Made by a program: the position numbers and the translations under genes. The notes under the pieces are model-generated. The model saw nothing but the letters and a program-made list of their open reading frames with translations, was not told where the DNA came from and searched no databases. A stretch of DNA of 33,734 bases. Source: a virus (taxonomy: Duplodnaviria > Heunggongvirae > Uroviricota > Caudoviricetes). Every line of letters starts with the position of its first letter. Within the stretch, counting starts at the first letter, position 1. Below are positions 1,193 through 18,785 of this stretch, in pieces. The DNA is taken from the IMG/VR virus record IMGVR_UViG_2778261657_000006, positions 1 to 33,734 of that record. One strand, 5' to 3'.

Positions 1193-1468
1193 GTGGCAAA
1201 AGTTTTTACACAAGAAGAGCGGGAAAAAATTAAAGGGCAGGTTGTTAAGCTAGTACGCCAGAGTGGGCGAGAGACGCTACGGCAACTGGAAGCTAAAACA
1301 GGTGCGACAAGATATCTGATGAGCGTTCTTGCCAGAGAGCTGGTTGCGAGCGGTGATGTATACAACTCTGGCTACGGGTTATTCCCGTCTGAACAGGCTC
1401 GTAAGGACTGGCAAAACGCCCGCAAAAAAACTCTCGAGGGCAAAGCTGAAGAAACCATCTGTGGTTGA
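1193..1468 (+). CDS. Hypothetical small protein (91 aa), possibly DNA-binding
   Basis: GTG start preceded by AGGAGG at about 6 nt. Basic, helical-looking sequence. An overlapping ORF in another frame (1329..1616) makes the local gene model ambiguous. Confidence 0.4.
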   Translation: MAKVFTQEEREKIKGQVVKLVRQSGRETLRQLEAKTGATRYLMSVLARELVASGDVYNSGYGLFPSEQARKDWQNARKKTLEGKAEETICG

Positions 1469-1730
1469 TCCGGACCTTATCTGGTCATTACCAGACGGAG
1501 AAATACGTCACTATGACAGGCGTCTAAACATAATCCGTCGCGAGTGCCGGAAGAGCGAAGTTATGCGGCGTGTGTTGAACTTTTATCATACCAGTAATAA
1601 GAAATTGGTTCGGTAAATGAAATTAAAGTGTATTGACTCAGATGTGAGGTAATATGTCTATGCATATAAACACTTTGTATGCATGTTGTGTTATTTTTAG
1701 TATGATAGAGTGTGTCAGATTTCTTATGAT

Positions 1731-1760
1731 TAAAAACAACCCTCAATAGAGGGTTGTTAC
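1731..1760 (-). terminator. Rho-independent terminator (bidirectional hairpin) immediately 3' of the OLD-family gene
   Basis: Perfect inverted repeat aacaaccctc-aata-gagggttgtt (1735-1758) followed by a T-run on the minus strand (plus-strand taaaaa at 1731-1736). Confidence 0.55.
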
Positions 1761-1788
1761 TAAATAATATTTATTACAACATTAAAAA

Positions 1789-3600
1789 TTAAAGGATCCA
1801 GATTTCAGGATTCTTTAGCGTCTCAATTTGGTTTTTATTACTGGCATAAAATGCATGATACATGTCTATCATTTTTTCGTTGGAGCTGATAAAAACAGAT
1901 GGATCTTTGTTTAAAATTCTGCTATATGTATCAAATATTGCTTTGTATTCTGGTGTTAAATTATTAGATAGAACTGATGTTACTGTCTCAACTTTGTTTG
2001 ATGGATTGAAATTTTTAAAAAACAGTCCTTCGAAATGAGGTATTTGAATAAATACCATTGGTTTTTTACTTTTAGAGCATTCGTTCATTATGGATACATT
2101 TGAACCCCATGCTCCATTACCTGAAACGCTTCCTTGCTTTAAGCATTTTGGAATGTCGGAGTCATGTACTGCTATATACTCAACGTTAAATTGATTTAAT
2201 ATTTTAGCAAATGTTTTTATATTCCCTTTTCCTAAACAGTCAATGATATGATAATCAACTCCGACAATATCACATATTTTGTTAATGACGATTTTTTCAG
2301 TTGGGCCTTCAACTAATATTATATTGTCGTAAAAGAAAAACTCATTAACCATTGGGTTGCATAATCTTATCATTTTCATATTATCTTTTTCCTCTTCAGA
2401 AAAAGATAGTTCATCTGTAGATATTGTTTTATTTAGCGATTTGTCTTTTTCTATCCTAATTATAGTCGTGTGCTTCTTGGATAAGTCTATGAATACAGGG
2501 GAGTGTGTTGTAGCCATCACCTGCCAGTTATCATTGTTTGCTGCAAAATCATAAAGCGAGTCCCTCGCACTTCTAATTATAGGAGGGTGAAGAAATGATT
2601 CAGGCTCATCAATCAATAAAATATATTGTTTTTTCTCAACAGAGATAGGCTTACCTTTCGCTTTTTTTATTTTATCTCGTGCATGAGATTCGTGAGTCAA
2701 AATTTGCAAAGCAGACCATAAAACGGAGCGGCGAACACCGTGACCTTGGTTCTCGAGAAGAGAGCTATTTATCCCATCCATTTTCACTGTAAGGTTAGAT
2801 TCTGAAACCATAACATCCGCATCTACGGGATCCTTGGAAAGTATGTTTAATTCCAGTTCTAGCCCAGGAAAAACAGATGATGATGATTTGGAGACCTGCT
2901 GTAGAAGATCATCGATTTTTGATTTGGAATCTTTCATAAGAGTGTCTGTCAACTCTTGTATTTTCTGTATTATATCAGCTTTACTTTCCCCTGTTTTCAG
3001 TAACTCATCTTTTGCATCTTCCTTTAAGAAACTTATGATAATTTTTTTAGTTTCATCCATGGATTTATCTGGGCTTATTCTTATTGGTTGAGGAACTCGA
3101 CTTTGTAGTAGTGTGTCAAGTCCCCCAGAGCCCCCATCAATAAATATGCGTTTGCCAGAGGCATCATCAAGGCCATAGGATTGTTTTTGGGCTGCTTTTT
3201 CTGGATGTGACCAAACCCATTTAACACAATAATAGAGTTTGCTTTCCAATGGGGTATTATTTTTCTCCCAATCTCCCCCATACTTTCTTGCCATATTTCT
3301 TCTGTCAAGAGCATCATCTTTATAAAACCATTTCTCTCCCCCTAATGTACGAATATCATCATCAGTGATATCAGTGAAAATTCCGCACATTTCAATTGGT
3401 ATAGATATATCTGAGTTATAAAAATCATGAGCAGTCAGGCCTTTTGCTGATCCTAAAGATGCAAACTTTTCATACGCATCTAATATTGTTGACTTTCCAG
3501 AGTTATTTGGACCAATTAGCACAACTATATCATCGATATATACTTCTATTTCATCTTTTATCGACTTGTAATTTTTAATATTAAATTGCTGTAGCTTCAT
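1789..3600 (-). CDS. OLD-family (overcoming lysogenization defect-like) ABC-type ATPase fused to a TOPRIM nuclease domain; candidate anti-phage defence / exclusion protein
   Basis: 603-aa ORF. N-terminal Walker A GPNNSGKST (aa 30-38), Walker B/D-loop LLIDEPESFLHP, H-loop ATTHSP. C-terminal TOPRIM signature ILVEGPTEK (conserved Glu, about aa 431) and HDSD (DxD, about aa 480; codons around 2161-2169). Very AT-rich compared with the flanking phage genes. Candidate TATAAT -10 upstream and a hairpin terminator downstream. Confidence 0.8.
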   Translation of the reverse strand: MKLQQFNIKNYKSIKDEIEVYIDDIVVLIGPNNSGKSTILDAYEKFASLGSAKGLTAHDFYNSDISIPIEMCGIFTDITDDDIRTLGGEKWFYKDDALDRRNMARKYGGDWEKNNTPLESKLYYCVKWVWSHPEKAAQKQSYGLDDASGKRIFIDGGSGGLDTLLQSRVPQPIRISPDKSMDETKKIIISFLKEDAKDELLKTGESKADIIQKIQELTDTLMKDSKSKIDDLLQQVSKSSSSVFPGLELELNILSKDPVDADVMVSESNLTVKMDGINSSLLENQGHGVRRSVLWSALQILTHESHARDKIKKAKGKPISVEKKQYILLIDEPESFLHPPIIRSARDSLYDFAANNDNWQVMATTHSPVFIDLSKKHTTIIRIEKDKSLNKTISTDELSFSEEEKDNMKMIRLCNPMVNEFFFYDNIILVEGPTEKIVINKICDIVGVDYHIIDCLGKGNIKTFAKILNQFNVEYIAVHDSDIPKCLKQGSVSGNGAWGSNVSIMNECSKSKKPMVFIQIPHFEGLFFKNFNPSNKVETVTSVLSNNLTPEYKAIFDTYSRILNKDPSVFISSNEKMIDMYHAFYASNKNQIETLKNPEIWIL

Positions 3601-3650
3601 TACATGTATCCTTTTTCTGTTCGGAGTGGCACTTGCTAGTGCAAACTAAC

Positions 3651-3685
3651 ATTATAAAAGAATAAAGTGATAGTCTTTTTATTAA
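3651..3685 (-). promoter_or_regulatory. Candidate sigma70 promoter for the OLD-family gene
   Basis: Perfect TATAAT on the minus strand (plus-strand attata at 3651-3656) about 50 nt upstream of the ATG at 3600. The -35 element is weak and AT-rich. Not validated. Confidence 0.3.
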
Positions 3686-3800
3686 CACTGGGGCGTATCG
3701 TGATACATGTTATGTAAATGTTGCTTATCTCTTTCCTTTTATATGATTTGCTGTTATTTTTAAATGCCGAAGGCTTCCATATGTTTTTATCTCAGTTATC

Positions 3801-3846
3801 ACTATCTTTGATAGTTCGTGTGCATGCGCAGTTTCTTTGAAACTGC
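3801..3846. promoter_or_regulatory. Two adjacent palindromes (actatc-ttt-gatagt at 3801-3815; gcagtttc-ttt-gaaactgc at 3828-3846); candidate operator sites
   Basis: Direct reading of perfect inverted repeats in the AT-rich intergenic region between the divergent OLD-family and hok genes. Confidence 0.3.
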
Positions 3847-4030
3847 AGATATCCGCTCTTTACCCAAACGGACAGACAGATTTGTGTTATGCCAACGCAG
3901 AGCGTCGATGGGGAAATAGTATAATAAATGAAAGTTGTTAGTGTCGGATGGGCGTCGTTAACAGGATTTGAGAAAATGAATTTAATTGTTGTTATTGTTC
4001 TTATGGTTCGCCTTTCTGATTGATTTCATG

Positions 4031-4059
4031 TTGGCGAGGTAACGGTAGTTAAGTAGAAT
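4031..4059 (+). promoter_or_regulatory. Candidate hok promoter (TTGGCG - 17 nt - TAGAAT)
   Basis: Sigma70-like hexamers with 17-nt spacing. The predicted transcript would carry a leader of about 170 nt before the hok ATG, matching the long structured leader typical of hok mRNAs. Confidence 0.3.
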
Positions 4060-4234
4060 GGCTGTGGGTGCTTGAGGCTATCTGCCTCGGGCATGAACAC
4101 CAACGGCAGATAGAGAAAAGCCCCAGTTAACATTACGCGTCCTGCAAGACGCTTAACATTAATCTGAGGCCAATTTCATGCTAGACACATGTAGGTTAGC
4201 CTCTTACGTGCCGGAAGGCAAGGAGAAGCAGGCT

Positions 4235-4390
4235 ATGAAGCAGCAAAAGGCGATGTTAATCGCCCTGATCGTCATCTGTTTAACCGTCATAGTGACGGCA
4301 CTGGTAACGAGGAAAGACCTCTGCGAGGTACGAATCCGAACCGGCCAGACGGAGGTCGCTGTCTTCACAGCTTACGAACCTGAGGAGTAA
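4235..4390 (+). CDS. hokD: Hok/Gef-family membrane toxin (type I toxin), HokD/RelF-like
   Basis: 51-aa product MKQQKAMLIALIVICLTVIVTALVTRKDLCEVRIRTGQTEVAVFTAYEPEE: single N-terminal transmembrane helix plus the conserved Hok motif (TRK.LCE.R...G..EVAAF.AYE). The ORF track extends it in frame to 4178, but the recognisable Hok protein begins at the internal Met. Confidence 0.8.
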   Translation: MKQQKAMLIALIVICLTVIVTALVTRKDLCEVRIRTGQTEVAVFTAYEPEE

Positions 4391-5893: not shown

Positions 5894-6271
5894 ATGACTG
5901 AACGCATAGAATTTGTTTTGCCTTACCCGCCGACGGTGAATACCTACTGGCGACGTCGTGGCAGCACATATTTTGTATCAAAAGCCGGTGAGCGTTATCG
6001 CCGTGATGTGGCGCTTATTGTTCGCCAGCAGCGACTGAAATTAAACCTGTCCGGAAGGCTGGCAATAAAAATTATTGCAGAGCCACCGGATAAGCGCCGC
6101 CGCGACCTGGACAATATCCTGAAGGCACCACTGGATGCGCTGACGCATGCCGGACTACTTATAGACGACGAGCAGTTTGATGAAATCAATATTGTGCGCG
6201 GACTGCCTGTTCCTGGTGGGCGGTTGGGCGTGAAGATTTACGAAATTACAGGTGATAACGATGGTGCGTGA
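5894..6271 (+). CDS. rusA: RusA-family Holliday junction resolvase
   Basis: 125 aa with the RusA hallmarks: [54 protein letters not shown]. Confidence 0.85.
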
Positions 6272-6647
6272 TATTCAGCAGGTTATGGAGCGGTGGGGAG
6301 CATGGGCTGCGAACAATCACGAAGATGTGTCATGGGCGTCAATCGCTGCTGGTTTTAAAGGATTAATCCCGCCGAAAGTGAAATCACGCCCTCAGTGTTC
6401 TGATGATGATGCAATGATAATTTGTGGCTGTATGGCCCGGTTGAACAAGAAAAATCAGGATTTGCACGATTTGTTGGTGGATTATTACGTAGGTGGAATG
6501 ACTTTTATGGGGTTGGCACGAAAGCATGGGTGTTCGGATACCTGTATTGGCAAGCGCCTGCAGAAAGCGGAAGGGGTTATTGATGGCATGTTGATGATGC
6601 TTGATATCCGACTGGAGATGGACAGATACGTAGAACGAATCATGTAG
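6261..6647 (+). CDS. Late-gene antiterminator Q (phage 82 / QuuD-type)
   Basis: Product [23 protein letters not shown]...[23 protein letters not shown]... closely resembles the DLP12 QuuD / phage 82 Q family as recalled. Overlaps the rusA stop. Followed by a promoter-terminator pair. Start could also be 6252. Confidence 0.7.
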
Positions 6648-6651
6648 GAGC

Positions 6652-6681
6652 TTGACCAGACACATTGTCCGGGGCTATATT
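6652..6681 (+). promoter_or_regulatory. Candidate late promoter pR' (TTGACC - 17/18 nt - TATATT) just after Q
   Basis: Direct reading. Position matches lambdoid pR'. A hairpin at 6689-6706 (cgccag-caaaat-ctggcg) lies in the predicted leader. Confidence 0.45.
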
Positions 6682-6741
6682 CCTCACGCGCCAGCAAAAT
6701 CTGGCGTCGGGATTGGCGTCCCGGATGAAAAAGGCGACAAC

Positions 6742-6763
6742 AGACGCGCCAGCGTCTTTTTTA
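6742..6763 (+). terminator. Candidate tR' rho-independent terminator (end of a short 6S-like leader transcript)
   Basis: agacgc-gcca-gcgtct stem followed by ttttttatt, about 80 nt downstream of the candidate pR'. Confidence 0.5.
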
Positions 6764-6920
6764 TTGTCGTTTGCACTGTCACATCTCAATGGTGGGCTGT
6801 GTGGGGGCGGAGCGATCCGCGCCGGTTCCTTTTTCCCGGTTACGCCAACCCTGCACAGTTCACCACCATACTGATTGGCGTCAGCAGTGGTGATGATTCA
6901 CATAGAAAAAGGATCATCCT

Positions 6921-7409
6921 ATGGCTATTCAAATCTCAGTTGAAACTCTTTCCCCGATCACCCATAACCAAATCCCTGTCATTACTACCGAGCTTTTGGC
7001 ACAACTTTATGGCACCGAAACTAATAACATCAAAGTGAACTATACACGCAATGCCGAGCGTTTTGTTTGTGGGAAACACTACTTCAAATTGGAAGGGGCT
7101 GAGTTGCGGGAATTTAAGAACAAGGTTACTCAAAGTAACTTAGTTGCACCGCGTACAAAGCACCTCATCCTCTGGACAGAACGCGGAGCAGCCCGTCACA
7201 CCAAAATGCTGGAAACCGATCAGGCGTGGGAAGTGTTCGAAAAACTGGAAGACTGTTATTTCAGCCAAAAACAACCACCAGCAGCACAAAACACCCCAAC
7301 CCAAAATGATGGATGCGCATTACTGATCCACTTCGATAAACACGGTCAGGTCGACTTCACGGAAAAACTACCCGCCGATGCGATGGTATGCACTCTGGAA
7401 CGGTTTTAA
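6921..7409 (+). CDS. ORF6N-domain / antirepressor-like protein (BRO/KilA-N superfamily-like) in the Q-to-lysis interval
   Basis: 162 aa. N-terminal region (ITHNQIPVITTELLAQLYGTETNNIKVNYTRNAERF..GKHYFKLEG.ELREFK) resembles the ORF6N/antirepressor fold as recalled; not searched. AGGA-type ribosome-binding site (aaaaaggatcatcctATG). Confidence 0.5.
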   Translation: MAIQISVETLSPITHNQIPVITTELLAQLYGTETNNIKVNYTRNAERFVCGKHYFKLEGAELREFKNKVTQSNLVAPRTKHLILWTERGAARHTKMLETDQAWEVFEKLEDCYFSQKQPPAAQNTPTQNDGCALLIHFDKHGQVDFTEKLPADAMVCTLERF

Positions 7410-7485
7410 AAATTTTCCCCGAACGCTTTACGATCGTAAAAAGTTGAATATCCTGTTAAGAGTGGTTACTACGCCAAACAGCTTA

Positions 7486-7509
7486 AACCCGCCACTGAGC
7501 GGGTTTTTT
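7486..7509 (+). terminator. Rho-independent terminator
   Basis: acccgc-cactga-gcgggt stem followed by tttttat. Confidence 0.55.
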
Positions 7510-7631
7510 ATGCCTGAAAAACGGTACAGGACGTTAAACGCGCTGGTGGTTGCGAATACTGGTCTTTCGGCTTGTATTTTTGTAAATCGATATATACTTA
7601 TCTTGTGACCAGTAATGTCAGGGCAATTGAT

Positions 7632-8375
7632 ATGAATGAAGCTTGTTCTGTTGTTTTTGTTCATTCCCCGTTTGTTGTGCTCTTTGAAGGAAAAGAGCTC
7701 TCTCTGGAAAGTGGTAGTGCACTTCTTGTCAGGGGGGGAGCTGGATCGTTATTGCCCTTTTCGGAATGTTTTCGGCGAATAAGTCTCAGTGAATCGACAA
7801 TTATCCGTTACCTGTTGTGTGGAGACGAAAAACAGGATGTAGTTTTAGTCCGGCAAATACCACGATATCTTTGCGTGAGTTTTCCCAAGGCAGAATTGAT
7901 GGGCATCCTGATTGATTATCTTTGTGAGGAAAAGATTCATACGGACAATTTAGCGGAAATGCTTTCCTTTTCGTGTCTGGCGTTTTTCTCATCAGAGAAA
8001 ATGTTTTCGTCGTTTCTGACCGCGTGTATTGGCAATATTAGTGACAGGCTTAGTGCATTGTTTCGTACGGACATTGCAGCAAACTGGACTCTGAGAGATG
8101 TGTCTTCGCGGTTATGTATCAGTGAAAGTTTGTTAAAAAAAAGACTGAAAGAAGAAGGCACCTGTTTCAGTGAGTTGTTGCTTACAGAGAGAATGAGAAT
8201 GGCAGCAATGCTGTTGAATCAATCTCGTTGCGCCATCAACAGAATCGCTGCTCAGTGTGGCTATAATTTTACATCTTATTTTATCAGCGTATTCAGGAGT
8301 TATTTTGGTGTTACACCGGCAGGTTACAGGATGGCTGCATTCAATGAGATGAGTTTAAGTGTTACTCAAGAATAA
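7632..8375 (+). CDS. AraC/XylS-family transcriptional regulator (prophage-encoded cargo)
   Basis: C-terminal AraC-type helix-turn-helix pair (WTLRDVSSRLCISESLLKKRLKEE...INRIAAQCGYNFTSYFISVFRSYFGVTPAGYR). AT-rich compared with phage core genes. Track ORF starts at TTG 7572; the first ATG is at 7632. Confidence 0.75.
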   Translation: MNEACSVVFVHSPFVVLFEGKELSLESGSALLVRGGAGSLLPFSECFRRISLSESTIIRYLLCGDEKQDVVLVRQIPRYLCVSFPKAELMGILIDYLCEEKIHTDNLAEMLSFSCLAFFSSEKMFSSFLTACIGNISDRLSALFRTDIAANWTLRDVSSRLCISESLLKKRLKEEGTCFSELLLTERMRMAAMLLNQSRCAINRIAAQCGYNFTSYFISVFRSYFGVTPAGYRMAAFNEMSLSVTQE

Positions 8376-9213: not shown

Positions 9214-9759
9214 ATGAAGTCGAAAGATGAAATTTTTGACGAAATTCTGGGAAAAGAGGGCGGTTACGTCAATCACCCGGATGATAAAGGTGGTCCGACT
9301 AAATGGGGCATCACTGAAAAAGTTGCCCGTGCACACGGTTATCAGGGCGATATGCGTGACCTGACGCGTGGGCAGGCGCTGGAAATACTCGAGGCGGACT
9401 ACTGGTACGGACCACGATTCGACCAGGTTGAGGACCTGTCTCCTGATATTGCCGCAGAGTTGTGCGATACGGGCGTGAACATGGGGCCAACTGTGGCGTC
9501 CAGAATGCTTCAGCGCTGGCTGAACGTTTTCAACCTGCGCGGGAAACTCTATCCGGATATGGATGCAGATGGACGCATCGGGCCGCGTACTCTTAATGCA
9601 TTACGGGCATATCTGAAAAATCGCAGCAGGGATGGTGAACTGGTACTGGTGAAAGCCCTGAACTGTACGCAGGGCGAGCGTTATCTGGAGCTGGCAGAGA
9701 AACGCGAGGCCAATGAGTCGTTTGTCTATGGCTGGATGAAAGAGCGCGTGGTGGTTTAA
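9214..9759 (+). CDS. Endolysin, glycoside hydrolase family 108-like with a C-terminal peptidoglycan-binding domain
   Basis: N-terminus MKSKDEIFDEILGKEGGYVNHPDDKGGPTKWGIT is the typical GH108 start (EGGY...D.GG.T..GIT). C-terminal PG_binding_3-like region. Family recalled, not searched. Confidence 0.7.
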   Translation: MKSKDEIFDEILGKEGGYVNHPDDKGGPTKWGITEKVARAHGYQGDMRDLTRGQALEILEADYWYGPRFDQVEDLSPDIAAELCDTGVNMGPTVASRMLQRWLNVFNLRGKLYPDMDADGRIGPRTLNALRAYLKNRSRDGELVLVKALNCTQGERYLELAEKREANESFVYGWMKERVVV

Positions 9760-9854
9760 AAACTGACACTGAAGTGCTGAACACCCTCAACTCATGCAGG
9801 CTCTTTTCTGGGGCTACGATGAGCGAAAGTAAGGGGCATAGCATCAGATAGCAA

Positions 9855-9890
9855 AAACCCCGGCTGCGGTAACAGTCCGGGGTTTTCTGT
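9855..9890 (+). terminator. Rho-independent terminator after the endolysin
   Basis: ccccgg...ccgggg stem followed by ttttctgttt. Confidence 0.55.
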
Positions 9891-9919
9891 TTCTGGCCCT
9901 GGGTAAGGCAAAGGAGAAC

Positions 9920-10102
9920 ATGAGGAAGTATAAACTAATTCTGTTGAGGTTGACTATGAAAAACGGCCTTGAATTGAAAGCGCCTGTAACTGATGACATC
10001 AGCAGAGCGGTGGCTTTTGCCATTAAGTGGGGGGCGGTCGGTATCGCTGTGTCTCCGATGCTGTATGGGATGGCAAAATTGATCATTGCTGTGAAATCGT
10101 AA
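9920..10102 (+). CDS. Small hydrophobic protein (60 aa)
   Basis: Strong AAGGAG ribosome-binding site 5 nt upstream of the ATG. C-terminal transmembrane-like segment. No recognisable family. Confidence 0.4.
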   Translation: MRKYKLILLRLTMKNGLELKAPVTDDISRAVAFAIKWGAVGIAVSPMLYGMAKLIIAVKS

Positions 10103-10119
10103 GTGGGGCAGGGGTAAAT

Positions 10120-10254
10120 ATGTCAGATAGCATTATAAAACTGGCGCGAATTCTCTGTGTGGTTGTTGGCCTTTCATTTTCAGCAATGTTGGTTGCCATT
10201 TTCATTTCCACCGCCTGGCGAGTATTGAGCTTATCCGGATTGATTGGTGGATAG
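10120..10254 (+). CDS. Small membrane protein (44 aa)
   Basis: ATG at 10120 within track ORF 10027..10254. Single transmembrane helix (ILCVVVGLSFSAMLVAIFI). Confidence 0.3.
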   Translation: MSDSIIKLARILCVVVGLSFSAMLVAIFISTAWRVLSLSGLIGG

Positions 10255-10258
10255 TGAG

Positions 10259-10441
10259 ATGAAGCGAAAACACTGGACACACAGAATGCCGCGAACGGCG
10301 GCGAAATGGGCACTGGTAGCGATACTGGTGCCTTTTTTCCTGGTGGGATGCGTCAGCCTGGATAAGGCGCGCCAGCTTTTCGATACGGCCTCGCAGGTCT
10401 GCGAAATTGTCGAAAGTGCCAGGCAGTGTATGCAGAACTGA
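10259..10441 (+). CDS. Small lipoprotein (60 aa): possible o-spanin-like or exclusion lipoprotein
   Basis: Signal peptide with lipobox FLVGC (MKRKHWTHRMPRTAAKWALVAILVPFFLVGC...). Confidence 0.45.
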   Translation: MKRKHWTHRMPRTAAKWALVAILVPFFLVGCVSLDKARQLFDTASQVCEIVESARQCMQN

Positions 10442-10528
10442 TCGCCTGTAAGAACAGAATATTGTTGAATCTAAATTTACTTTGAACAGTGGCCCGGATG
10501 GAAAGGGCATCTAAATAGGAGCAGAAAA

Positions 10529-10738
10529 ATGTTAACTGTAAAAGTCATGTCTCAAAATGGTGGGGAAGAGATCCATTGCGGGCGTAGCATTGGCTATCAT
10601 CCAGAGCAGCGGAGTATTGCCGTATCGGGAAAGGATGGGAAAGTCATTCTGAAAGATGGAGATATTGCTTATGTAATGAACCAAAACGCTCAAATAATAT
10701 CTGTTTATCGGCCCAATAATAGTCAGAAAAACATTTGA
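10529..10738 (+). CDS. Hypothetical protein (69 aa)
   Basis: AGGAG ribosome-binding site 8 nt upstream. Lies in an AT-rich cargo region. No recognisable family. Confidence 0.45.
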   Translation: MLTVKVMSQNGGEEIHCGRSIGYHPEQRSIAVSGKDGKVILKDGDIAYVMNQNAQIISVYRPNNSQKNI

Positions 10739-10861
10739 ATTTCGCAAGGCCAAAGTTCAGTGGTGATCGTTATCAACTAATTGAAATAACAAGCTTATGT
10801 TTGTGTAATTGGTGATATAGCATGTTAATGCTGAATATCAGCGTCAACATGGAGTTATACA

Positions 10862-11077
10862 ATGGTTTTTAAACACTATTACGTGAACAAAAATGCTCAG
10901 AGCAATGGCGATCATGAGGTGCATGCTGAGGAATGTTCATATCTTCCTGCTGTAGCTAACCGCGATTACCTTGGTTACTATAGTGATTGTTCTTCGGCGG
11001 TAACAGAGGCAAAGGCCAAAGGATATTCCCGGGTGAATGGTTGCTATTGGTGTGCCAATAAGTGCCACACGTCTTAA
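10862..11077 (+). CDS. Hypothetical small Cys-rich protein (71 aa)
   Basis: GGAG ribosome-binding site upstream. Cys residues at CSYL, DCSS, GCYWCANKCH suggest a metal-binding or disulfide-stabilised fold. Followed by a clean terminator. Confidence 0.5.
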   Translation: MVFKHYYVNKNAQSNGDHEVHAEECSYLPAVANRDYLGYYSDCSSAVTEAKAKGYSRVNGCYWCANKCHTS

Positions 11078-11096
11078 TCAATTGTCAATAAACCAT

Positions 11097-11120
11097 AAAG
11101 GCCGCTCTGCGGCCTTTTTC
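11097..11120 (+). terminator. Rho-independent terminator
   Basis: ggccgc-tct-gcggcc stem followed by tttttc. Confidence 0.6.
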
Positions 11121-11140
11121 ATGTTAAAAAAGATTGCGGC

Positions 11141-11177
11141 ATTACAGCAGCCCTTCACTCTAAGGGGCTGCTGTAAT
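11141..11177. repeat. 13-bp perfect inverted repeat (attacagcagccc / gggctgctgtaat) with an 11-nt loop
   Basis: Direct reading. Followed by two copies of aataaaaaaccgg (about 11185 and 11319). Confidence 0.5.
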
Positions 11178-11499
11178 GTGAGAAATAAAAAACCGGTCAC
11201 AGGGAGCAGCTACACAGAACCGGCCGGCGAAGACCGCCAATACCACCCATGCATTGATGCAACATACTAATTACAATAGCCGCTATTGATGTAAATGCAA
11301 TGTTATGCATCGACGAAAATAAAAAACCGGCAGGGGAAATCCATTGAAGATTTGCCGGTGGCAAAAGAGGGCCATGTTTTTAACCTTAGTCGCAGAGTTA
11401 CGGAGTGCAACTACGAATGCTGCCGGTATATGGCTGAATGGCGTTTCAATGATGTACGTCATCTTATCTGTAAATGTTAATGATAAACGCTCTCATTTG

Positions 11500-11560
11500 T
11501 GCGGGTCCTCCCGGTGTAGTGGCCTTACCACGGGGCGGGAGCGGCGCGGAAAACGGCTAG
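11500..11560. other. Putative cos site (cosN-like)
   Basis: cgggtcctcccggtg...acggggcgggagcggcgcgg resembles the lambda cosN region (cgggtcctttccggtg...acggggcggcgacctcgcgg) as recalled from memory. Lies about 200 bp upstream of the terminase small subunit gene with AT-rich DNA in between. Confidence 0.45.
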
Positions 11561-11717
11561 TTTTTTGCATTTTCATGGTGGCGGCAGCATGTGAGGTAAT
11601 TTATTGATAATTAAAAGCTATTTCCATTTTCACCTGTACAATATTTTTTTCTCCCTGTCATTAGACCAGTTTGCAATTGATTGATATATATAAATAAATC
11701 TGATTTTTACCTGCCGG

Positions 11718-12266
11718 ATGGAGTTGCCTATGTCAAATGTGATTGGGATCGGTGATGCTTATCACTGGAGTGTTTTTAAAATCGCCGAGGCTTTTGGACT
11801 TCATCGGGACACAGTAAAAAAACGTCTCCTCGCAGCCAACACTCCTGTGGCTGCAACTGTCAAAGGAAACCCCGTTTATGCCCTGCAGCATGTCGGCCCT
11901 GCCCTGTTTGGCCCGAAGCATGAGGCAGTAGACTCTGTTCATGATCCATCCCGGATGGAGCCGAAAGAGAGAAAGGACTGGTACCAGTCTGAAAATGAAA
12001 GGATCAAGCTGGAAAAGGAACAGCGAAAACTCATCCCTGTCGATGAAGTGGTCATCGTCTATTCATCCATGAGAAAGGCTGTCGTTCAGGTTCTGGAAAC
12101 CATTCCGGATATTCTGGAACGCGATTGCGCCCTGACTCCTCAGGCTGTTGGTGTCGTACAGCAGGCCATTGATGACCTGCGATACACCCTTCAGGAAAAA
12201 TCCTACGAGGCCTGTGCTGCTGAATTAATTTCTGATGAGGAAGGAGAGAGTCTCGAGGAGGAATAA
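11718..12266 (+). CDS. Terminase small subunit (Nu1-like)
   Basis: N-terminal helix-turn-helix-like region and acidic C-terminus. Immediately upstream of, and overlapping, the large terminase start. The likely true start is ATG 11730, which has a GGAG ribosome-binding site. Confidence 0.65.
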   Translation: MELPMSNVIGIGDAYHWSVFKIAEAFGLHRDTVKKRLLAANTPVAATVKGNPVYALQHVGPALFGPKHEAVDSVHDPSRMEPKERKDWYQSENERIKLEKEQRKLIPVDEVVIVYSSMRKAVVQVLETIPDILERDCALTPQAVGVVQQAIDDLRYTLQEKSYEACAAELISDEEGESLEEE

Positions 12267-14365
12267 TGGGTTTTTCATCAGCCCGAAACCTTGGCAGGGA
12301 CATATCTGCAGGATTTTCCCCACCACGTCGTATGCCGATTTCGGAGGCTGTTAAAAAATTCATGCGTGTTCCCAAAGGGGCTGGTAACTCGGTACCATGG
12401 GATCCTGAACTGACACCCTACATCATTGAGCCCATGAACTGCCTGGCATCGCGTGAATACGATGCGGTGATTTTTGTTGGCCCTGCGCGGACAGGGAAGA
12501 CCATCGGTCTGATCGATGGATGGATTGTCTATACCATCGTTTGCGATCCTTCGGACATGCTCGTCGTGCAGATGACCGAAGATAAGGCCCGCGAGCATTC
12601 TAAAAAGCGGCTCGACAGAACGTTCAGAAGTAGTGCGGCGGTAAAGAAAAGAATGAGTCCACGTCGTAACGATAATAATGTCCATGATAAGACGTTTAGG
12701 GATGGCTCGTTCCTTAAAATTGGTTGGCCCTCGGTCAACATTATGTCATCGTCGGATTACCGGTTTGTCGCCTTAACCGATTATGACCGTTTTCCGGAGA
12801 ATATCGACAGCGAGGGTGATGGTTTCTCCCTGGCCTCAAAACGTACCACCACATTTATGTCCGCCGGAATGACTCTGGTGGAGAGCTCGCCGGGACGTGA
12901 CATCTGTGACAGCAAATGGCGACGTAAGTCGCCCCATGAAGCGCCACCGACGACCGGTATTCTTTCCCTTTACAATCGTGGTGATCGCCGCCGCTGGTAC
13001 TGGCCATGTCCGCACTGCGGTGAATATTTTCAGCCAGCCATGGATACCATGACCGGCTATCGGGATGAACCAGATCCCTTTAAAGCCAGTGAGGCAGCGT
13101 ATCTACTTTGCCCGCACTGCAGCGGCGTTATCACTGCGGATAAAAAGCGTGAGCTCAATAGTGCAGGAGTCTGGTTGCGTGAAGGTCAGGACATTGATTG
13201 TAACGGCAACATTTCCGGTGAACCGCGCCGCTCCCGTATCGCCAGTTTTTGGATGGAGGGGCCCGCTGCCGCTTATCAGACCTGGGCGCAACTGATTTAT
13301 AAGTTGTTGACCGCCGAACAGGAATACGAGGCAACCGGAAGCGAAGAAACACTCAAGACGGTTATCAATACCGACTGGGGATTACCTTATCTTCCCCGCG
13401 CCAGCATGGAGCAACGAAAAAGTGAACTGCTTGAGCAGCGGGCGGAGCCAGTTCCTTCCCGCAGTGTGCCGGATGGCGTTAATTTCCTTGTGGCGACGGT
13501 GGATGTACAGGCGGGACGTCATCGCCGTTTTGTGGTTCAGGTAACGGGCTATGGTAGTCGCGGCGAGCGCTGGATAGTTGATCGTTACAACATCACGCAG
13601 TCGTTACGTTGTGACAATAATGGAGAAAGCCTGCGTATTGACCCTGCCGGTTATCCGGAAGACTGGGATGTCCTGCTGACGGATGTTTTTCATAAAAGCT
13701 GGCTGCTGGCCTCCGATCCTTCTCAACAAATGCGACTGATGGCAATGGCGGTGGACTCCGGCGGTGAAGACGGGGTCACTGATAATGCCTATAAATTCTG
13801 GCGTCGTTGCCGTCGTGATGGCCTTGGTAAACGTATTTACCTGTTTAAGGGCGACAGCATCCGGCGCGCAAAACTGATCACCCGTACATTCCCTGATAAC
13901 ACCGGACGAACGGGCCGACGGGCGCAGGCTGCGGGTGATGTGCCTCTCTGGCTTCTTCAGACTGACGCTCTGAAAGACCGGGTTAATAACGCGTTATGGC
14001 GTGATTCTCCCGGTCCTGGCTATGTGCATTTTCCCGACTGGCTGGGGAGCTGGTTTTACGACGAATTGACGTATGAAGAGCGGAGCAGTGACGGGAAATG
14101 GAGTAAGCCGGGGCGCGGTGCGAACGAAGCCTTTGACCTGATGGTGTATGCCGAGGCGCTGGTCATTCTGCATGGGTACGAGAAAATTCAGTGGCCTGAT
14201 GCGCCGGAGTGGGCGTGCCGGGAAACCTGGCTGGAGTGTGTCAGTGACAACGCGGAGCCACCTGTTCTGCCGGAGCCGGAACGTCCCCCGGCCAGAAAGA
14301 AGAAACGAAAAAAAATGGCACCCGATGAGGATAACCCCTGGGTGACATCCGGAGGATGGTTATGA
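12266..14365 (+). CDS. Terminase large subunit (lambda gpA family)
   Basis: 699 aa. Walker A-like VGPARTGKT, CPHCG zinc-ribbon-like motif as in lambda gpA, ATGA overlap with the small subunit stop. Confidence 0.8.
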   Translation: MGFSSARNLGRDISAGFSPPRRMPISEAVKKFMRVPKGAGNSVPWDPELTPYIIEPMNCLASREYDAVIFVGPARTGKTIGLIDGWIVYTIVCDPSDMLVVQMTEDKAREHSKKRLDRTFRSSAAVKKRMSPRRNDNNVHDKTFRDGSFLKIGWPSVNIMSSSDYRFVALTDYDRFPENIDSEGDGFSLASKRTTTFMSAGMTLVESSPGRDICDSKWRRKSPHEAPPTTGILSLYNRGDRRRWYWPCPHCGEYFQPAMDTMTGYRDEPDPFKASEAAYLLCPHCSGVITADKKRELNSAGVWLREGQDIDCNGNISGEPRRSRIASFWMEGPAAAYQTWAQLIYKLLTAEQEYEATGSEETLKTVINTDWGLPYLPRASMEQRKSELLEQRAEPVPSRSVPDGVNFLVATVDVQAGRHRRFVVQVTGYGSRGERWIVDRYNITQSLRCDNNGESLRIDPAGYPEDWDVLLTDVFHKSWLLASDPSQQMRLMAMAVDSGGEDGVTDNAYKFWRRCRRDGLGKRIYLFKGDSIRRAKLITRTFPDNTGRTGRRAQAAGDVPLWLLQTDALKDRVNNALWRDSPGPGYVHFPDWLGSWFYDELTYEERSSDGKWSKPGRGANEAFDLMVYAEALVILHGYEKIQWPDAPEWACRETWLECVSDNAEPPVLPEPERPPARKKKRKKMAPDEDNPWVTSGGWL

Positions 14366-14574
14366 ATCAGAATGATATTGAAGCCATGATCCAGCGTTAT
14401 ATCGATGCGGAAATGGCTGTGCTGGACGGTAAATCCGTCACCTTTAATGGTCAGCAGATGACCATGGAAAATTTGTCCGAGATCCGACAGGGCCGCCAGG
14501 AGTGGGAGCGGCGGCTTGCTGCCCTGACTGCGCGGCGGCGGGGGGATCCTGGGTATAAACTGGCGAGGTTCTGA
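14356..14574 (+). CDS. Head-tail joining protein gpW-like
   Basis: 72 aa in the lambda W position between terminase and portal. C-terminal RRRGDPGYKLARF resembles the lambda W C-terminus. Confidence 0.65.
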   Translation: MVMNQNDIEAMIQRYIDAEMAVLDGKSVTFNGQQMTMENLSEIRQGRQEWERRLAALTARRRGDPGYKLARF

Positions 14575-16079
14575 TGGCAATTCTGGATGATGTGATTGGT
14601 GTTTTTTCACCAGGCTGGAAGGCGGCGAGATTGCGCTCAAGAGCGTTAATTCGCGCTTATGAGGCCGTAAAACCCACCCGCACACACAAAGCCCGACGGG
14701 AAAACCGTTCTGCTGACCAGCTCAGTAAGTATGGGGCGGTTTCCCTGCGGGAGCAGGCCCGTTTTCTGGATATCAATCATGACCTGGTAATCGGTGCTTT
14801 CGACAAACTTGAGGAGCGGGTGATTGGTGCAAAGGGGATCATTGTTGAACCCCAGCCATTACTGAAAAACGGTGATATGGCCACAGAAGTGGCAATGATT
14901 ATCCGTCGTTTGTGGTCGGAATGGTCTGTCAGTCCGGATGTGACCGGGCAGTATACGCGCCCCATGCTCGAGCGTCTGCTGCTGCGTACCTGGTTACGTG
15001 ATGGTGAAGTGTTTGCCCAGATGGTCAGAGGCGCAGGTGCCGGGCTGGTCTGGACTGCCGGCGTGCCTTTCTGGCTCGAGGCAATAGAGCCGGATTTTGT
15101 GCCCATGCTCAGTGATGAGTCCGCGGGAATGAATCAGGGGGTTTTTCTGGATGAGTGGGGCAGGCCGAAAAAATACCTGGTTTATAAAAATTATCCGGTT
15201 ACCGGCCGACAGAGTGATACCAAAGAGATCGCCGCTGAAAATATGGTGCATCTGAAGTTTACCCGCCGGCTGCATCAGACGCGTGGTACATCCATGTTGT
15301 CAGGTGTGTTGATGCGGATCAGTGCGCTTAAGGAATATGAAGATGCTGAACTGACAGCGGCGCGTATTGCTGCGGCTCTGGGGCTGTATATCCGTAAAGG
15401 AGACGGACAGGATTATGAAGACGTTGTGACAAATAAAGATAATGACCGGGAACTGCATATCACTCCCGGCATTATTTATGACGATCTGCGCAAGGGGGAA
15501 GATATTGGCATGGTCAAATCCGATCGGCCTAACCCTAACCTGGAAACTTTTCGTAATGGTCAGTTGCGGGCCGTGGCGGCGGGCACACGTCTGAGTTTTT
15601 CCAGTGCAGCACGTAACTATAACGGTACCTACAGCGCCCAGCGACAGGAACTGGTCGAGTCCACCGATGGTTATCTGATCATGCAGGACTGTTTTATTGG
15701 TGCTGTAACCCGTCCGGTGTACCGGGCATGGCTGAATATGGTGGTTGCCGCTGGGTTGCTGAAAATCCCGCCGGATGTCGATATGAAAACGTTATATAAC
15801 GCAACATATTCTGGTCCGGTGATGCCGTGGATCGACCCTGTCAAGGAGGCTGAAGCCTGGAAAATCCAGATCCGTGGTGGTGCGGCGACAGAATCAGACT
15901 GGGTGCGCGCCAGTGGGCGTAATCCGGATGATGTCAAACGTCGGCGCAAGGCCGAAATTGATGAAAACCGCAGGCTGGAGCTGGTGTTTGATACCGATCC
16001 AGCCTGCGATAAAGGAGGTGGTAATGCTGAAACAGAACGCGTGGTTCCGCGGCGAACCGAAGGCCAGCCTGAAGAATAA
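14574..16079 (+). CDS. Portal protein (lambda gpB family)
   Basis: 501 aa, in portal position and of portal size. Overlaps the W stop (TGATGG). Confidence 0.75.
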   Translation: MAILDDVIGVFSPGWKAARLRSRALIRAYEAVKPTRTHKARRENRSADQLSKYGAVSLREQARFLDINHDLVIGAFDKLEERVIGAKGIIVEPQPLLKNGDMATEVAMIIRRLWSEWSVSPDVTGQYTRPMLERLLLRTWLRDGEVFAQMVRGAGAGLVWTAGVPFWLEAIEPDFVPMLSDESAGMNQGVFLDEWGRPKKYLVYKNYPVTGRQSDTKEIAAENMVHLKFTRRLHQTRGTSMLSGVLMRISALKEYEDAELTAARIAAALGLYIRKGDGQDYEDVVTNKDNDRELHITPGIIYDDLRKGEDIGMVKSDRPNPNLETFRNGQLRAVAAGTRLSFSSAARNYNGTYSAQRQELVESTDGYLIMQDCFIGAVTRPVYRAWLNMVVAAGLLKIPPDVDMKTLYNATYSGPVMPWIDPVKEAEAWKIQIRGGAATESDWVRASGRNPDDVKRRRKAEIDENRRLELVFDTDPACDKGGGNAETERVVPRRTEGQPEE

Positions 16080-18096
16080 TTCCTGGTTCAGGATGAAGGC
16101 GGGTAATAAAAGTGACGCAGATATTTATATCTATGACGAGATTGGTTTCTGGGGAGTTACGGCGAAGCAGTTTGTCAGTGATCTGAATGCGCTGGGTAAT
16201 ATCACCCACATTAATCTCCATATCAATTCACCGGGTGGCGATGTCTTTGAAGGCATCGCCATTTTTAATGCGCTGAAAAATCATGGGGCGTCCATCACTG
16301 TTTATGTGGATGGTGTCGCTGCATCCATGGCATCGGTCATTGCAATGGTGGGTGATCCCGTCATCATGCCGGAAAACGCATTCATGATGATCCATAAACC
16401 ATGGGGAGTGAGTGGTGGCGATGCGGATGACATGCGTGATTATGCCGACCTGCTTGATAAAGTTGAGTCGGTCCTGTTGCCTGCTTATGCGCAGAAAACC
16501 GGGAAAACAACCGATGAAATTGCTGCCATGCTGGCGGATGAAACCTGGATGTCCGGTGCCGAATGTCTGGCACACGGATTTGCTGACCAGGTGACACCGG
16601 AAGTTAAGGCAATGGCATGTATTCAGTCAAAACGTACAGAGGAATTTAAAAAAATGCCGGAATCCATCCGAAATATGATTATTCCGCCACGCAACAGCGC
16701 AACGCGTGAACCTGAAAACCCAAATGCAGTATCTCAGACACAGGCGCAGGTTACGACTCAGGTTGCCGCAACGACGAACAGCGCTGCGCCCACTGCAACT
16801 GCATCTTCCGCAGATGAAAACAGCATCCGTGCACAGGTGCTGGCTGAGCAAAAAGCACGCGTGAGTGGTATTAATGAGCTGTTCGGTATGTTTGGTGGGC
16901 GTTATCAGACATTGCAGGCCAGTTGTCTTTCCGATCCGGAGTGCTCGCTTGAGCAGGCCCGTGAGAAGTTACTGAACGAAATGGGTAAGGAATTCTCACC
17001 ATCAAATAAAAATACCCCGGCCCATATTTATGCCGGTAACGGTAATTTTGTGGGGGACGGGATCCGCCAGGCGCTGATGGCGCGTGCCGGATTTGCTGAG
17101 CGTGAACAGAATAACGTCTACAACGGGATGACCCTGCGCGAATATGCCCGTATGTCGCTGACTGAACGGGGTATCGGGGTTTCCGGTTATAACCCCATGC
17201 AGATGGTTGGTGCGGCATTCACACACAGCTCGTCTGACTTCGGTAATATTCTGCTGGATGTTGCGAACAAAGCCATTCTGCAGGGCTGGGAAGAAGCCCC
17301 TGAGACTTACGAGCAGTGGACCCGGAAAGGTCAGCTGTCTGATTTTAAAATTGCTCATCGTGTGGGAATGGGGGGCTTCAGTTCTCTGCGTCAGGTGCGT
17401 GAAGGGGCTGAATATAAGTACGTCACCACCGGAGATAAACAGGCCACGATTGCACTGGCGACCTATGGTGAACTGTTCAGTATCACCCGTCAGGCCATTA
17501 TCAATGATGATCTGAATATGCTGACCGATGTCCCGATGAAACTGGGCCGTGCGGCGAAATCCACTATTGCCGATCTGGTTTATGCCATTCTGACGTCTAA
17601 CCCGAAAATCTCCACAGATAATGTAAGTCTGTTCGATAAAGCGAAACATGCAAACGTACTGGAGAGCGCTGCAATGGACGTGGCATCGCTGGATAAAGCC
17701 CGCCAGTTGATGCGCGTTCAGAAAGAGGGGGAGCGTCATCTGAATATTCGTCCTGCGTTCGTACTGGTACCGACAGCGATGGAATCCGTGGCTAACCAGG
17801 TGATTCGTTCTGCCAGCGTGAAAGGCGCAGATATTAATGCCGGCATTATTAACCCGGTGAAAGATTTTGCGACCGTTATTGCTGAGCCGCGCCTTGATGA
17901 TAACAGCCAGACCACCTTTTATCTGGCTGCGGCAAAAGGTACGGATACAATTGAAGTGGCTTATCTCAATGGGGTGGATACGCCATATATTGATCAGATG
18001 GAGGGCTTCAGTGTGGATGGTGTGACAACGAAAGTGCGTATTGACGCCGGCGTTGCACCGGTTGATCACCGCGGTCTGGTGAAATGTACGGCGTAA
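16024..18096 (+). CDS. ClpP-like (S14) prohead protease fused to a major capsid protein domain
   Basis: Start ATG 16024 with ribosome-binding site aaaggaggtggta. N-terminal ClpP motifs (INSPGGDVFEGIAIFNAL, VAASMAS, MIHKPWG). Large C-terminal domain consistent with a capsid subunit. Track ORF begins at 15874 inside the portal gene. Confidence 0.7.
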   Translation: MLKQNAWFRGEPKASLKNNSWFRMKAGNKSDADIYIYDEIGFWGVTAKQFVSDLNALGNITHINLHINSPGGDVFEGIAIFNALKNHGASITVYVDGVAASMASVIAMVGDPVIMPENAFMMIHKPWGVSGGDADDMRDYADLLDKVESVLLPAYAQKTGKTTDEIAAMLADETWMSGAECLAHGFADQVTPEVKAMACIQSKRTEEFKKMPESIRNMIIPPRNSATREPENPNAVSQTQAQVTTQVAATTNSAAPTATASSADENSIRAQVLAEQKARVSGINELFGMFGGRYQTLQASCLSDPECSLEQAREKLLNEMGKEFSPSNKNTPAHIYAGNGNFVGDGIRQALMARAGFAEREQNNVYNGMTLREYARMSLTERGIGVSGYNPMQMVGAAFTHSSSDFGNILLDVANKAILQGWEEAPETYEQWTRKGQLSDFKIAHRVGMGGFSSLRQVREGAEYKYVTTGDKQATIALATYGELFSITRQAIINDDLNMLTDVPMKLGRAAKSTIADLVYAILTSNPKISTDNVSLFDKAKHANVLESAAMDVASLDKARQLMRVQKEGERHLNIRPAFVLVPTAMESVANQVIRSASVKGADINAGIINPVKDFATVIAEPRLDDNSQTTFYLAAAKGTDTIEVAYLNGVDTPYIDQMEGFSVDGVTTKVRIDAGVAPVDHRGLVKCTA

Positions 18097-18120
18097 ATGT
18101 CGCAGACAACAACCCTGATG

Positions 18121-18139
18121 GCCCGTAAGGGCTTTTTTT
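18121..18139 (+). terminator. Possible partial terminator after the capsid gene
   Basis: gccc-gtaa-gggc hairpin followed by ttttttt. Confidence 0.4.
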
Positions 18140-18182
18140 GTACCTGAAATCAGCCCCGGGCAGGGGCTGTATGGAGACAGTT

Positions 18183-18506
18183 ATGGCAAAGAATTTTGTG
18201 GAAGAAGGAAAAACGGTGGAGATCATTGCTGGTAAAGACATCAGCAGTGGTGAACTGGTGCAGGTGGGAGATATTTTTGCAGTGGCACTGACCGATATTG
18301 CAAAGGGCGAAACGGGGGACGGGATAGCTGAGGGTGTATTTATGTTGCCGAAGCTGAAAACGGATGACATGAAAACGGGTAAGAAGGTTTATCTGAAATC
18401 CGGAAAAGTTCAGCTGACGAACAGTGGTTCCGATCCGCTTGTCGGGGTTACCTGGGCGGATGCCGGAACCAGCGCAGAAGACGTGCCGGTAAAACTCAAT
18501 GTCTGA
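18183..18506 (+). CDS. Small head-associated structural protein (DUF2190-like)
   Basis: About 107 aa, directly after the capsid gene. ATG at 18183 within track ORF 18138..18506. Confidence 0.45.
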   Translation: MAKNFVEEGKTVEIIAGKDISSGELVQVGDIFAVALTDIAKGETGDGIAEGVFMLPKLKTDDMKTGKKVYLKSGKVQLTNSGSDPLVGVTWADAGTSAEDVPVKLNV

Positions 18507-18774: not shown

Positions 18775-18785
18775 AGAGGTGTGGG

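Follow-up and report, generated by a model that had tools for sequence, protein, structure and literature searches.

What is a strongly AT-rich gene, oriented against all the phage genes that flank it, doing inside a lambdoid prophage? The question is raised by a 33,734-nucleotide stretch of caudoviral DNA (IMG/VR record IMGVR_UViG_2778261657_000006, positions 1 to 33,734; the whole of it is termed the window below and is numbered from its first letter), in which a 603-codon open reading frame (ORF) on the minus strand lies between a DUF977 gene and a hok/sok-type locus. A first-pass annotation of the same DNA had read this ORF as cargo of a lambdoid prophage that encodes an ATPase-Toprim nuclease of the OLD family, with a candidate role in anti-phage defence. 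The computational analysis described here bears out most of that account. The gene is a Class 1 (stand-alone) OLD by the published definition and, as a moron of its carrier, it probably protects the lysogen, and hence the prophage, by abortive infection.

The reading frame (1789..3600, minus strand) runs uninterrupted from ATG to stop as originally described, and an open frame of 603 codons has a chance probability of ~6e-22 when calculated with the composition of the ORF's own coding strand; DNA this rich in A and T abounds in stop codons. At a G + C content (GC) of 34.3%, the gene is the lowest-GC 1.8-kb stretch within the window; the island that holds it (1617-3980) stands at 34.1% GC and the remainder of the window at 52.7%, in keeping with the AT-richness noted in the first pass. 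Homology of the flanks to other prophages ends at ~1620 on one side and at ~3980-4047 on the other. The ORF map also confirms the reported orientation, in which the gene opposes all flanking phage genes, faces a convergent DUF977 gene downstream, and has the hok/sok locus upstream. Comparison of the window gene with two orthologues at 87-88% identity gives a ratio of nonsynonymous to synonymous substitution rates (dN/dS) of 0.07, indicating strong purifying selection.

The distribution of the gene supports its status as cargo. It is present in four of 5,426 complete Escherichia coli genomes (VG48B2, XJ34, XJ6-3, and strain 135), at the same location in each, where RefSeq labels the product 'ATP-dependent nuclease' (WP_016248732.1). 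The prophage that carries it, integrated beside potABCD, is lambdoid and Qin/Rac-like, in agreement with the setting assumed at the outset, and the gene is situated between DUF977 and hokD. Both ends of the island (1600-1800 and 3601-3990) are confined to the same four genomes among the 5,426, and the flanking DUF977 and hokD sequences occur in thousands of genomes. The DUF977-hokD junction (window 1617-4050 and its equivalents) behaves as a variable slot across E. coli prophages. Other cargo found there includes QueH with a methyltransferase, DUF5677, an alpha/beta hydrolase, DUF7167 or DUF551, KilA-N, and a SAM methyltransferase. In K-12, the equivalent position of Qin holds relB-relE-hokD, exactly the correspondence with relBE that had been proposed.

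Four independent lines of evidence, drawn from sequence and modelling, agree that the predicted protein is a member of the OLD family, in which an ABC ATPase is joined to a Toprim nuclease. The ATPase spans residues ~1-372 and is interrupted by a helical insertion at ~181-312, the Toprim domain follows at ~422-540, and the chain ends in a short, clade-specific helical tail. Every motif listed in the first-pass annotation is found, with correct residue numbers: GPNNSGKST (30-38), LLIDEPE (328-334), THSP (365-368), VEGPTE (430-435, containing E431 and E435), and HDSD (479-482, containing D480 and D482). Among Pfam models, AAA_15 (8.5e-30, residues 1-371) and AAA_21 (2.9e-16) both match above their curated cut-offs, as does OLD-like_TOPRIM (PF20469; 2.3e-14 over residues 422-482, 54 bits versus a cut-off of 23). 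When the protein is compared with PADLOC models by profile score, outside the system rules of PADLOC or DefenseFinder, the best is Old (3.4e-73, 245 bits), which aligns residues 1-507 with profile positions 2-476 of 578 (82%). Weaker scores are obtained with AriA (2.4e-31, ~108 bits), the GajA models (at most 89 bits, ~1e-26 or weaker), and AriAB (6.2e-20, 69 bits). The best sequence match in the Protein Data Bank is the Class 1 OLD of Thermus scotoductus (Ts OLD, 6P74), detected at 3e-16 by phmmer and, with a family profile of 61 sequences, at 2.1e-27.

An AlphaFold2 model, built on the 61-homologue family alignment, points to the same fold. The model has a mean predicted local distance difference test score (pLDDT) of 76.9 and a predicted template-modelling score (pTM) of 0.74, and Foldseek aligns it over full length with GajA, Ts OLD, and the OLD effector of retron Eco8 at E values of 1e-20 to 1e-14. 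The best match is a GajA chain, followed by Ts OLD at 1.4e-19. Template-modelling scores (TM-scores) for these alignments reach only ~0.5, a level to be expected where a protein has several domains that can move. The predicted Toprim fold is thus present together with its full set of catalytic residues, and the lack of such a fold, which had been named as one finding that would contradict the initial assignment, is not what is seen. Long helices at 181-240 and 287-312 are inserted in the ATPase and are modelled with low pLDDT (36-65); the least confident parts of the model (199-225, 255-267, and 312-322) fall in the long-helix insertion. The equivalent position in Ts OLD is occupied by its dimerisation domain (PMC7049728). 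A search of the viral structures in BFVD returned mostly giant-virus ATPases and SMC-like proteins, with P2 Old not among the matches.

The catalytic apparatus can be traced residue by residue from work on P2 Old, in which K37, D299, H306, H332, E398, E402, D453, D455, D541, E543, and K550 are each needed to kill recBC cells (PMC7049728). Adding P2 Old to the family alignment places the first eight of these on K36, D331, H338, H366, E431, E435, D480, and D482 of the protein studied here, and all eight equivalents are invariant in 61 homologues, down to 41% identity. Residues D299 and E300 of P2 Old align with D331 and E332. Metal-A residues can also be matched to Ts OLD, where E431 corresponds to E377, D480 to D431, and D482 to D433. 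The profile alignment to 6P74 pairs H522 and E524 with the metal-B ligands S478 and E480 of Ts OLD (roles from PMC7049728), and K536 follows the position of Ts R487 by a few residues, suggesting that it is the equivalent basic catalytic residue (Ts R487 or P2 K550). Judged by these alignments, the Toprim active site, including its two-metal site, looks complete.

Classes of OLD proteins are defined by gene context (PMC10568477, PMC7049728), and on that basis the protein is Class 1, because no helicase, reverse transcriptase, or second ORF is adjacent to the gene. In the window, the immediate neighbours are only the convergent DUF977 gene and hok/sok, in agreement with the initial statement that no partner helicase or second component stands alongside. 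The loci of five relatives, from five taxa, share no neighbour, and none of them has an adjacent UvrD-type helicase or a reverse transcriptase. As for the small ORFs of the island, located in its 380-bp leader and 170-bp trailer, they are unsupported as partners or antitoxins, being short, of low complexity, and confined to four near-identical genomes; Rfam detects no RNA family within the island. In Class 2 OLDs the catalytic Lys is supplied by a helical bundle at the C terminus, whereas in Class 1 the loop past the metal-B motif contributes the basic residue. The profile alignment runs through the Toprim domain of Ts OLD to its residue 504 with a Class 1-like spacing, yet ~50 extra C-terminal helical residues, which may or may not be related to the Class 2 bundle, are present here. 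The P2 Old-type, single-gene architecture claimed in the first pass is supported by domain content, by the best PADLOC model, and by the lack of a partner.

The protein belongs to a clade that corresponds to PHROG 4747 (match 1.8e-145), a family annotated as being of 'unknown function'. Its members are 560-603 residues long and form >100 clusters at 40-50% identity, mostly of ~562 residues, distributed over Gamma- and Betaproteobacteria, Rhizobium, Leptospira, and Flavobacteriales. A 603-residue enterobacterial subclade, which includes the window protein, carries a 22-residue insertion at 97-118. The clade is neither named nor tested in any paper found, and none of these papers contains the accession WP_016248732; likewise, no description was found of an OLD gene beside hok in a lambdoid prophage.

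Orthologues of the gene travel on several kinds of mobile element. One at 87% identity, in Serratia marcescens, is flanked within a P4-like satellite by the Ogr/Delta gene and the integrase, a position that may correspond to the defence hotspot described next to cos in such satellites (Rousset et al., PMC9122126). Another, at 88% in Yersinia ruckeri, adjoins the integrase of a P2/186-like prophage. Both are likewise AT-rich (34-36% GC). DNA homology between the window and the Yersinia and Serratia loci (L003 and L010, positions 6001-7812 in both) is limited to the ORF, corresponding to window 1793-3618. Because this homology starts and stops within ~20 bp of the ORF ends, the gene has moved between lambdoid phage, P2/186-like phage, and P4-like satellite as an almost bare ORF cassette, with no mechanism evident. 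Homologues at 45-48% identity border DUF927 integrative elements in Pseudomonas aeruginosa; others adjoin an integrase in Flavobacteriales or, in another E. coli, have NERD-UvrD and T5orf172 genes close by. Within the phage-genome collection, the homologue of highest identity (41.6%) is in Rhizobium phage RHph_Y3_56_1 (6756-8382). There it is annotated as two genes (H31 and H32), one for an ATP-dependent endonuclease and one for a TOPRIM-domain protein, and the pair is either an OLD that has been split or frameshifted or a variant that naturally comes in two pieces.

By sequence, the nearest characterised relative is P2 Old, a distant one, with the OLD of Vibrio cholerae (Vc OLD) outside the comparison. 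At one database size, the family profile scores 114 bits against P2 Old in a single collinear alignment (positions 1-448), 99 bits against Ts OLD in two pieces, 47 against GajA, and 25 against YbjD. P2 Old (UniProt P13520) is likewise the product of a single gene carried by a temperate phage as non-essential lysogenic-conversion cargo. It has the same order of ABC ATPase, helical insertion, and Toprim domain, and the two proteins are collinear as far as the DxD motif, starting at residue 1 (BLASTP 24% identity over 527 residues, E 3e-20; hhalign 99.5% over 419 columns), with every functionally tested residue up to D455 conserved. In the PADLOC Old model, P2 Old itself scores 712 bits versus 245 for the window protein and 264-279 for other members of the clade, and the alignment of the window protein misses the last ~100 profile positions. 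The carriers also differ, in that the gene studied here rides on a lambdoid prophage, the very phage type that P2 Old excludes, and has no tin-like gene downstream.

Ts OLD resembles the protein in its Toprim layout and in its spacing from DxD to metal B, which is 45 residues in Ts OLD and 40 here. It differs in identity (~16% by Foldseek) and length, the window protein being 75 residues longer (603 versus the 528 of the deposited chain) with extra helices after the Toprim domain, and it lacks the 22-residue insertion specific to the subclade. No phage phenotype is known for Ts OLD, whose gene is chromosomal (PMC10568477). Vc OLD, which can be compared by description only, is also a stand-alone protein on a mobile defence element. 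It is reported to share <25% identity with P2 Old and Ts OLD and to form its own clade, and its activity depends on residues of the Walker A, Walker B, and DxD motifs (PMC12392090), all of which are present here. YbjD (OldB) of E. coli has the same stand-alone ATPase-Toprim organisation but is very distant (BLASTP 2e-07 over ~180 residues) and is a core-genome gene, in contrast with the rare mobile cargo of the window. GajA (called a Class 2 or Class 4 OLD) and the Eco8 effector (a Class 3 OLD) have the same overall fold and align over full length in Foldseek. However, their family models score far below Old, and they need an adjacent GajB helicase, or a reverse transcriptase and multicopy single-stranded DNA (msDNA), none of which is encoded here or beside the relatives.

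Signals for independent expression are of two kinds. The hairpin terminator described in the first-pass annotation is borne out by folding: a G+C-containing 10-bp stem (AACAACCCUC/GAGGGUUGUU) followed by a U-run lies ~30 nt past the stop codon (~1730-1757, minus strand), and 0 of 200 shuffled sequences fold as well. A simple terminator scan did not report this hairpin owing to its strict T-tail rule, and folding was used instead. The promoter proposed at the same time has fared less well. A perfect TATAAT hexamer (3656-3651, minus strand) is located 56 nt 5' of the ATG, with no acceptable -35 element; TATAAT occurs in the island at ~2.5 per kb, and a consensus scan yields promoter-like sites no more numerous than in shuffled sequence. 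The leader that contains the hexamer occurs only in the same four E. coli genomes as the gene and is not common to the Yersinia or Serratia orthologue loci.

Family and context together argue for a defence role. A single conserved gene of foreign composition, captured repeatedly by competing elements and sitting in variable slots or at element edges, is how an anti-phage gene would be expected to look, evidence that is contextual and falls short of proof. In the proposed scheme, the protein would be made in the lysogen, would form a homodimer via its helical insertion as in Ts OLD, and would stay inactive until an infection cue arrives. Binding and hydrolysis of ATP would then license the Toprim domain to cut double-stranded nucleic acid, and this cutting would stop both the infected cell and the phage.

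Two modes of action have precedent among the relatives. P2 Old, which loss of RecBCD activates, is a tRNA nuclease that works by abortive infection and amputates tRNA anticodon arms, chiefly of tRNA-Thr(UGU) (PMC12445682). Vc OLD is an abortive-infection DNA nickase that acts independently of RecBCD and blocks phage replication (PMC12392090). Within the defence hypothesis, a P2-like mode, in which the anticodon stem of host tRNAs would be cut on loss of RecBCD, has a little under an even chance of being correct. A Vc-like mode, with RecBCD-independent nicking of replicating phage DNA, is a tentative possibility, and the remainder falls to some other trigger or target. The P2-like mode is slightly favoured because P2 Old is the closest relative; the sequence itself cannot decide between tRNA and DNA, or specify the trigger. 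Exclusion of the P2 Old type, which acts on lambda, is activated by lambda Gam as well as by RecBCD loss. No Pfam Gam domain occurs in the early-left arm of the related VG48B2 prophage (an arm that lies outside the window), so the carrier would not be expected to set off a RecBCD guard. The window contains no tRNA genes, and hence no source there of phage-tRNA self-immunity.

A further possibility, rather doubtful at present, is that the PHROG 4747 clade constitutes a functionally distinct, fourth type of stand-alone OLD, with a trigger and/or target unlike those of P2 Old, Vc OLD, and YbjD. It is hinted at by the carriage of near-identical cassettes on a lambdoid prophage, a P2/186-like prophage, and a P4-like satellite, elements that compete with one another, such that the cue must be one produced by none of these carriers. 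The distinct region after the DxD motif could confer a new substrate specificity.

Several observations weigh against the reading of this protein as a stand-alone defence nuclease. Identity to P2 Old is only 24%, and the C-terminal part, containing the metal-B residues and K550, is unaligned; in MAFFT, the segment with D541, E543, and K550 has no direct alignment with the protein, because the DxD-to-metal-B spacing differs (86 residues in P2 Old, 40 here). Expression in the lysogen is presumed, the promoter evidence being at chance level. The trigger (RecBCD inhibition) and substrate (the tRNA anticodon stem) of P2 Old are properties of that protein and extend to this one only by analogy, just as RecBCD independence and DNA nicking are properties of Vc OLD. 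YbjD departs from both, its Toprim domain being dispensable for its phenotypes (PMC13261556). Three characterised Class 1 OLDs thus have three mechanisms, which makes analogy a weak guide to trigger or substrate. Finally, the OLD family includes an archaeal ATPase, Cran1, whose role lies in the cell cycle rather than in defence.

Cran1 also exemplifies the best surviving alternative to defence, that the gene works for the phage itself during lytic growth (in replication, in recombination, or in taking over the host, as a RecF/SbcC/Rad50-like ATPase-nuclease) or has a cellular role of the kind that Cran1 shows to be possible for this family. The gene does adjoin replication and nin-region genes, its N terminus matches SMC_N, RecF, and Rad50 models, and defence by YbjD is independent of the Toprim domain (PMC13261556). 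The matches to RecF, SMC, Rad50, and SbcC, however, span only ~45-60 N-terminal P-loop residues and lie far below the cut-offs (20 versus 172 bits for recF, 22 versus 567 for SMC, and 12.5 versus 478 for SbcC). The housekeeping RecF/SbcC-like ATPase against which the first-pass annotation had cautioned is therefore not what the profiles detect. Presence in so few of the E. coli genomes, on a common backbone that carries unrelated cargo at the same place, implies that the gene is dispensable for the phage, and it is antisense to the early operon. The same gene is moreover carried by a P4-like satellite, a P2/186-like prophage, and integrative elements. A role in the carrier's own biology is accordingly improbable.

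A selfish addiction or toxin module, which would kill cells that lose the prophage or have DNA-repair defects and would have no specific anti-phage role, is suggested by direct adjacency to hok/sok in a slot that holds relBE in Qin, and by the killing of recBC cells by P2 Old (PMC10568477). The island, however, shows neither a partner gene resembling an antitoxin nor any antisense RNA, and both characterised Class 1 OLDs from mobile elements, P2 Old and Vc OLD, act against phages, which leaves this explanation with quite a low probability.

Very unlikely is the view that the protein is an orphaned or degenerate part of an OLD system made up of several genes (GajA lacking GajB, or a retron Class 3 effector lacking its reverse transcriptase together with the non-coding RNA) and is either inactive or dependent on a partner. 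Several GajA models match at ~1e-26, a GajA chain heads the Foldseek matches, and the NCBIfam model of the retron Eco8 effector (NF038234) matches weakly, at 37.8 bits versus a cut-off of 250; the GajA scores of at most 89 bits likewise compare poorly with the 245 bits of Old. There is no helicase or reverse transcriptase ORF in the island or its flanks, where the downstream gene is convergent, and no retron RNA by Rfam. Nor do the five relatives' loci supply either enzyme in an adjacent position. The NERD-UvrD gene of E. coli P0025 is ~2 kb away with two genes in between and is thus not adjacent. The strong purifying selection speaks against decay.

The remaining alternative, raised in the first-pass annotation, of a fused single-protein PARIS (AriA joined to an AriB Toprim/DUF4435 domain) that senses anti-restriction proteins such as Ocr and releases a tRNA-cleaving effector shares the ATPase-Toprim architecture and accounts for the AriA and AriAB matches given above, but is extremely unlikely, given that no DUF4435 (PF14491) match appears at E <= 1 while OLD-like_TOPRIM passes its cut-off, that Old outscores AriA and AriAB with the best AriAB stretch limited to residues 321-471, that the protein is collinear with P2 Old over the 419 hhalign columns, that no PARIS structure is among the best 50 Foldseek matches, and that the fused-PARIS sequences in the tables of Rousset et al. 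lack the signature peptides of this family. Supplementary entries in that study listed as 'similar to OLD-family nucleases' were also considered as possible relatives; they are fused PARIS proteins (AAA_15/DUF4435), and none contains the signature peptides.

As a Class 1 OLD that probably defends its lysogen, the gene fits an established class and is no new category of system, and the RefSeq label together with the clear best match to PADLOC Old suggests that standard defence finders would flag it. Its value lies elsewhere. Stand-alone OLDs are the founding yet least understood members of the family, with phenotypes available only for P2 Old, Vc OLD, and YbjD, and the gene stands for a clade that is broad, conserved, and highly mobile, for which no published test was found and whose carrier, here, is a lambda-like phage. 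It bears on whether guarding of RecBCD and amputation of tRNA are general to phage-borne OLDs or peculiar to P2, and on what keeps a lambdoid carrier from setting off the OLD that it encodes. In Qin/Rac-like prophages, the DUF977-hokD junction is a variable slot worth mining for defence or counter-defence genes. Coordinates of the gene, its motifs, and the surrounding features are collected in Table 1.

Table 1. Features of the cargo island and its hok/sok neighbour, in window coordinates.
Feature	Position	Strand	Evidence and remarks
AT-rich cargo island	1617..3980	.	Between DUF977 gene and hok/sok locus; composition, breaks in flank homology
Intrinsic-terminator-like hairpin	1730..1760 (about)	-	Fold dG -20.4 kcal/mol, z = -4.5; downstream of gene
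old-like gene	1789..3600	-	603-residue ORF; AAA_15, AAA_21, OLD-like_TOPRIM; PADLOC Old 3.4e-73; AlphaFold2/Foldseek; dN/dS 0.07
Toprim metal-B region PHFEG (H522, E524) and invariant K536	1993..2040	-	Profile alignment to 6P74
Toprim metal-A site, VEGPTE (E431, E435) to HDSD (D480, D482)	2155..2311	-	PF20469 and alignments
Walker B LLIDEPE codons (328-334, D331/E332), followed by D-loop H338 and H-loop H366	2599..2619	-	Invariant; match P2 Old D299, H306, H332
Walker A GPNNSGK codons (residues 30-36, K36)	3493..3513	-	K36 = P2 Old K37; invariant in 61 homologues
AT-rich non-coding leader, 380 bp, part of island	3601..3980	-	TATAAT 3656-3651, AGGA ribosome-binding site, short palindrome GCACTAGCAAGTGC
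Complete hok/sok-type type I toxin-antitoxin locus	4066-4390	+	Rfam sok 4066-4240; mok 4178-4390; hokD 4235-4390; immediately upstream of leader

Other features of the window concern the carrier. The DUF977 ('Ren-like') gene (1193-1616, plus strand), which lies just past the terminator of the OLD gene, is frameshifted by an extra A at ~1424 relative to VG48B2 and is thereby split into ORFs 1193-1468 and 1329-1616; it is either a pseudogene or the product of a sequencing error in a homopolymer run. At positions 9755-27796 the late region seems to be complete, its terminase, portal, head, and tail genes being represented by long ORFs. In the VG48B2 prophage, otherwise 98% identical, the late region has an IS3 insertion and a large deletion. 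These are absent from the window, which therefore comes from a different strain, and the carrier prophage of the window may be intact.

Just beyond the Q antiterminator, Rfam matches to c4-a1b1 (6675-6727), isrK (6688-6762), and C4 antisense RNA (6785-6870) are located directly upstream of an ORF6N-domain, antirepressor-like gene (6921-7409), and together this segment (6675-7409, plus strand) is a P1/P7-type, immI-like, antisense-controlled cassette. Between the Q and holin genes, a patch of ~42-43% GC encodes an AraC-family regulator (7572-8375, plus strand; HTH_18/HTH_AraC), which is probably further cargo, at the position taken by toxin genes in Shiga toxin (Stx) phages. After the tail-fibre region, positions 33496-33694 (plus strand) hold a full-length match to Rfam IS009 at 223.7 bits.

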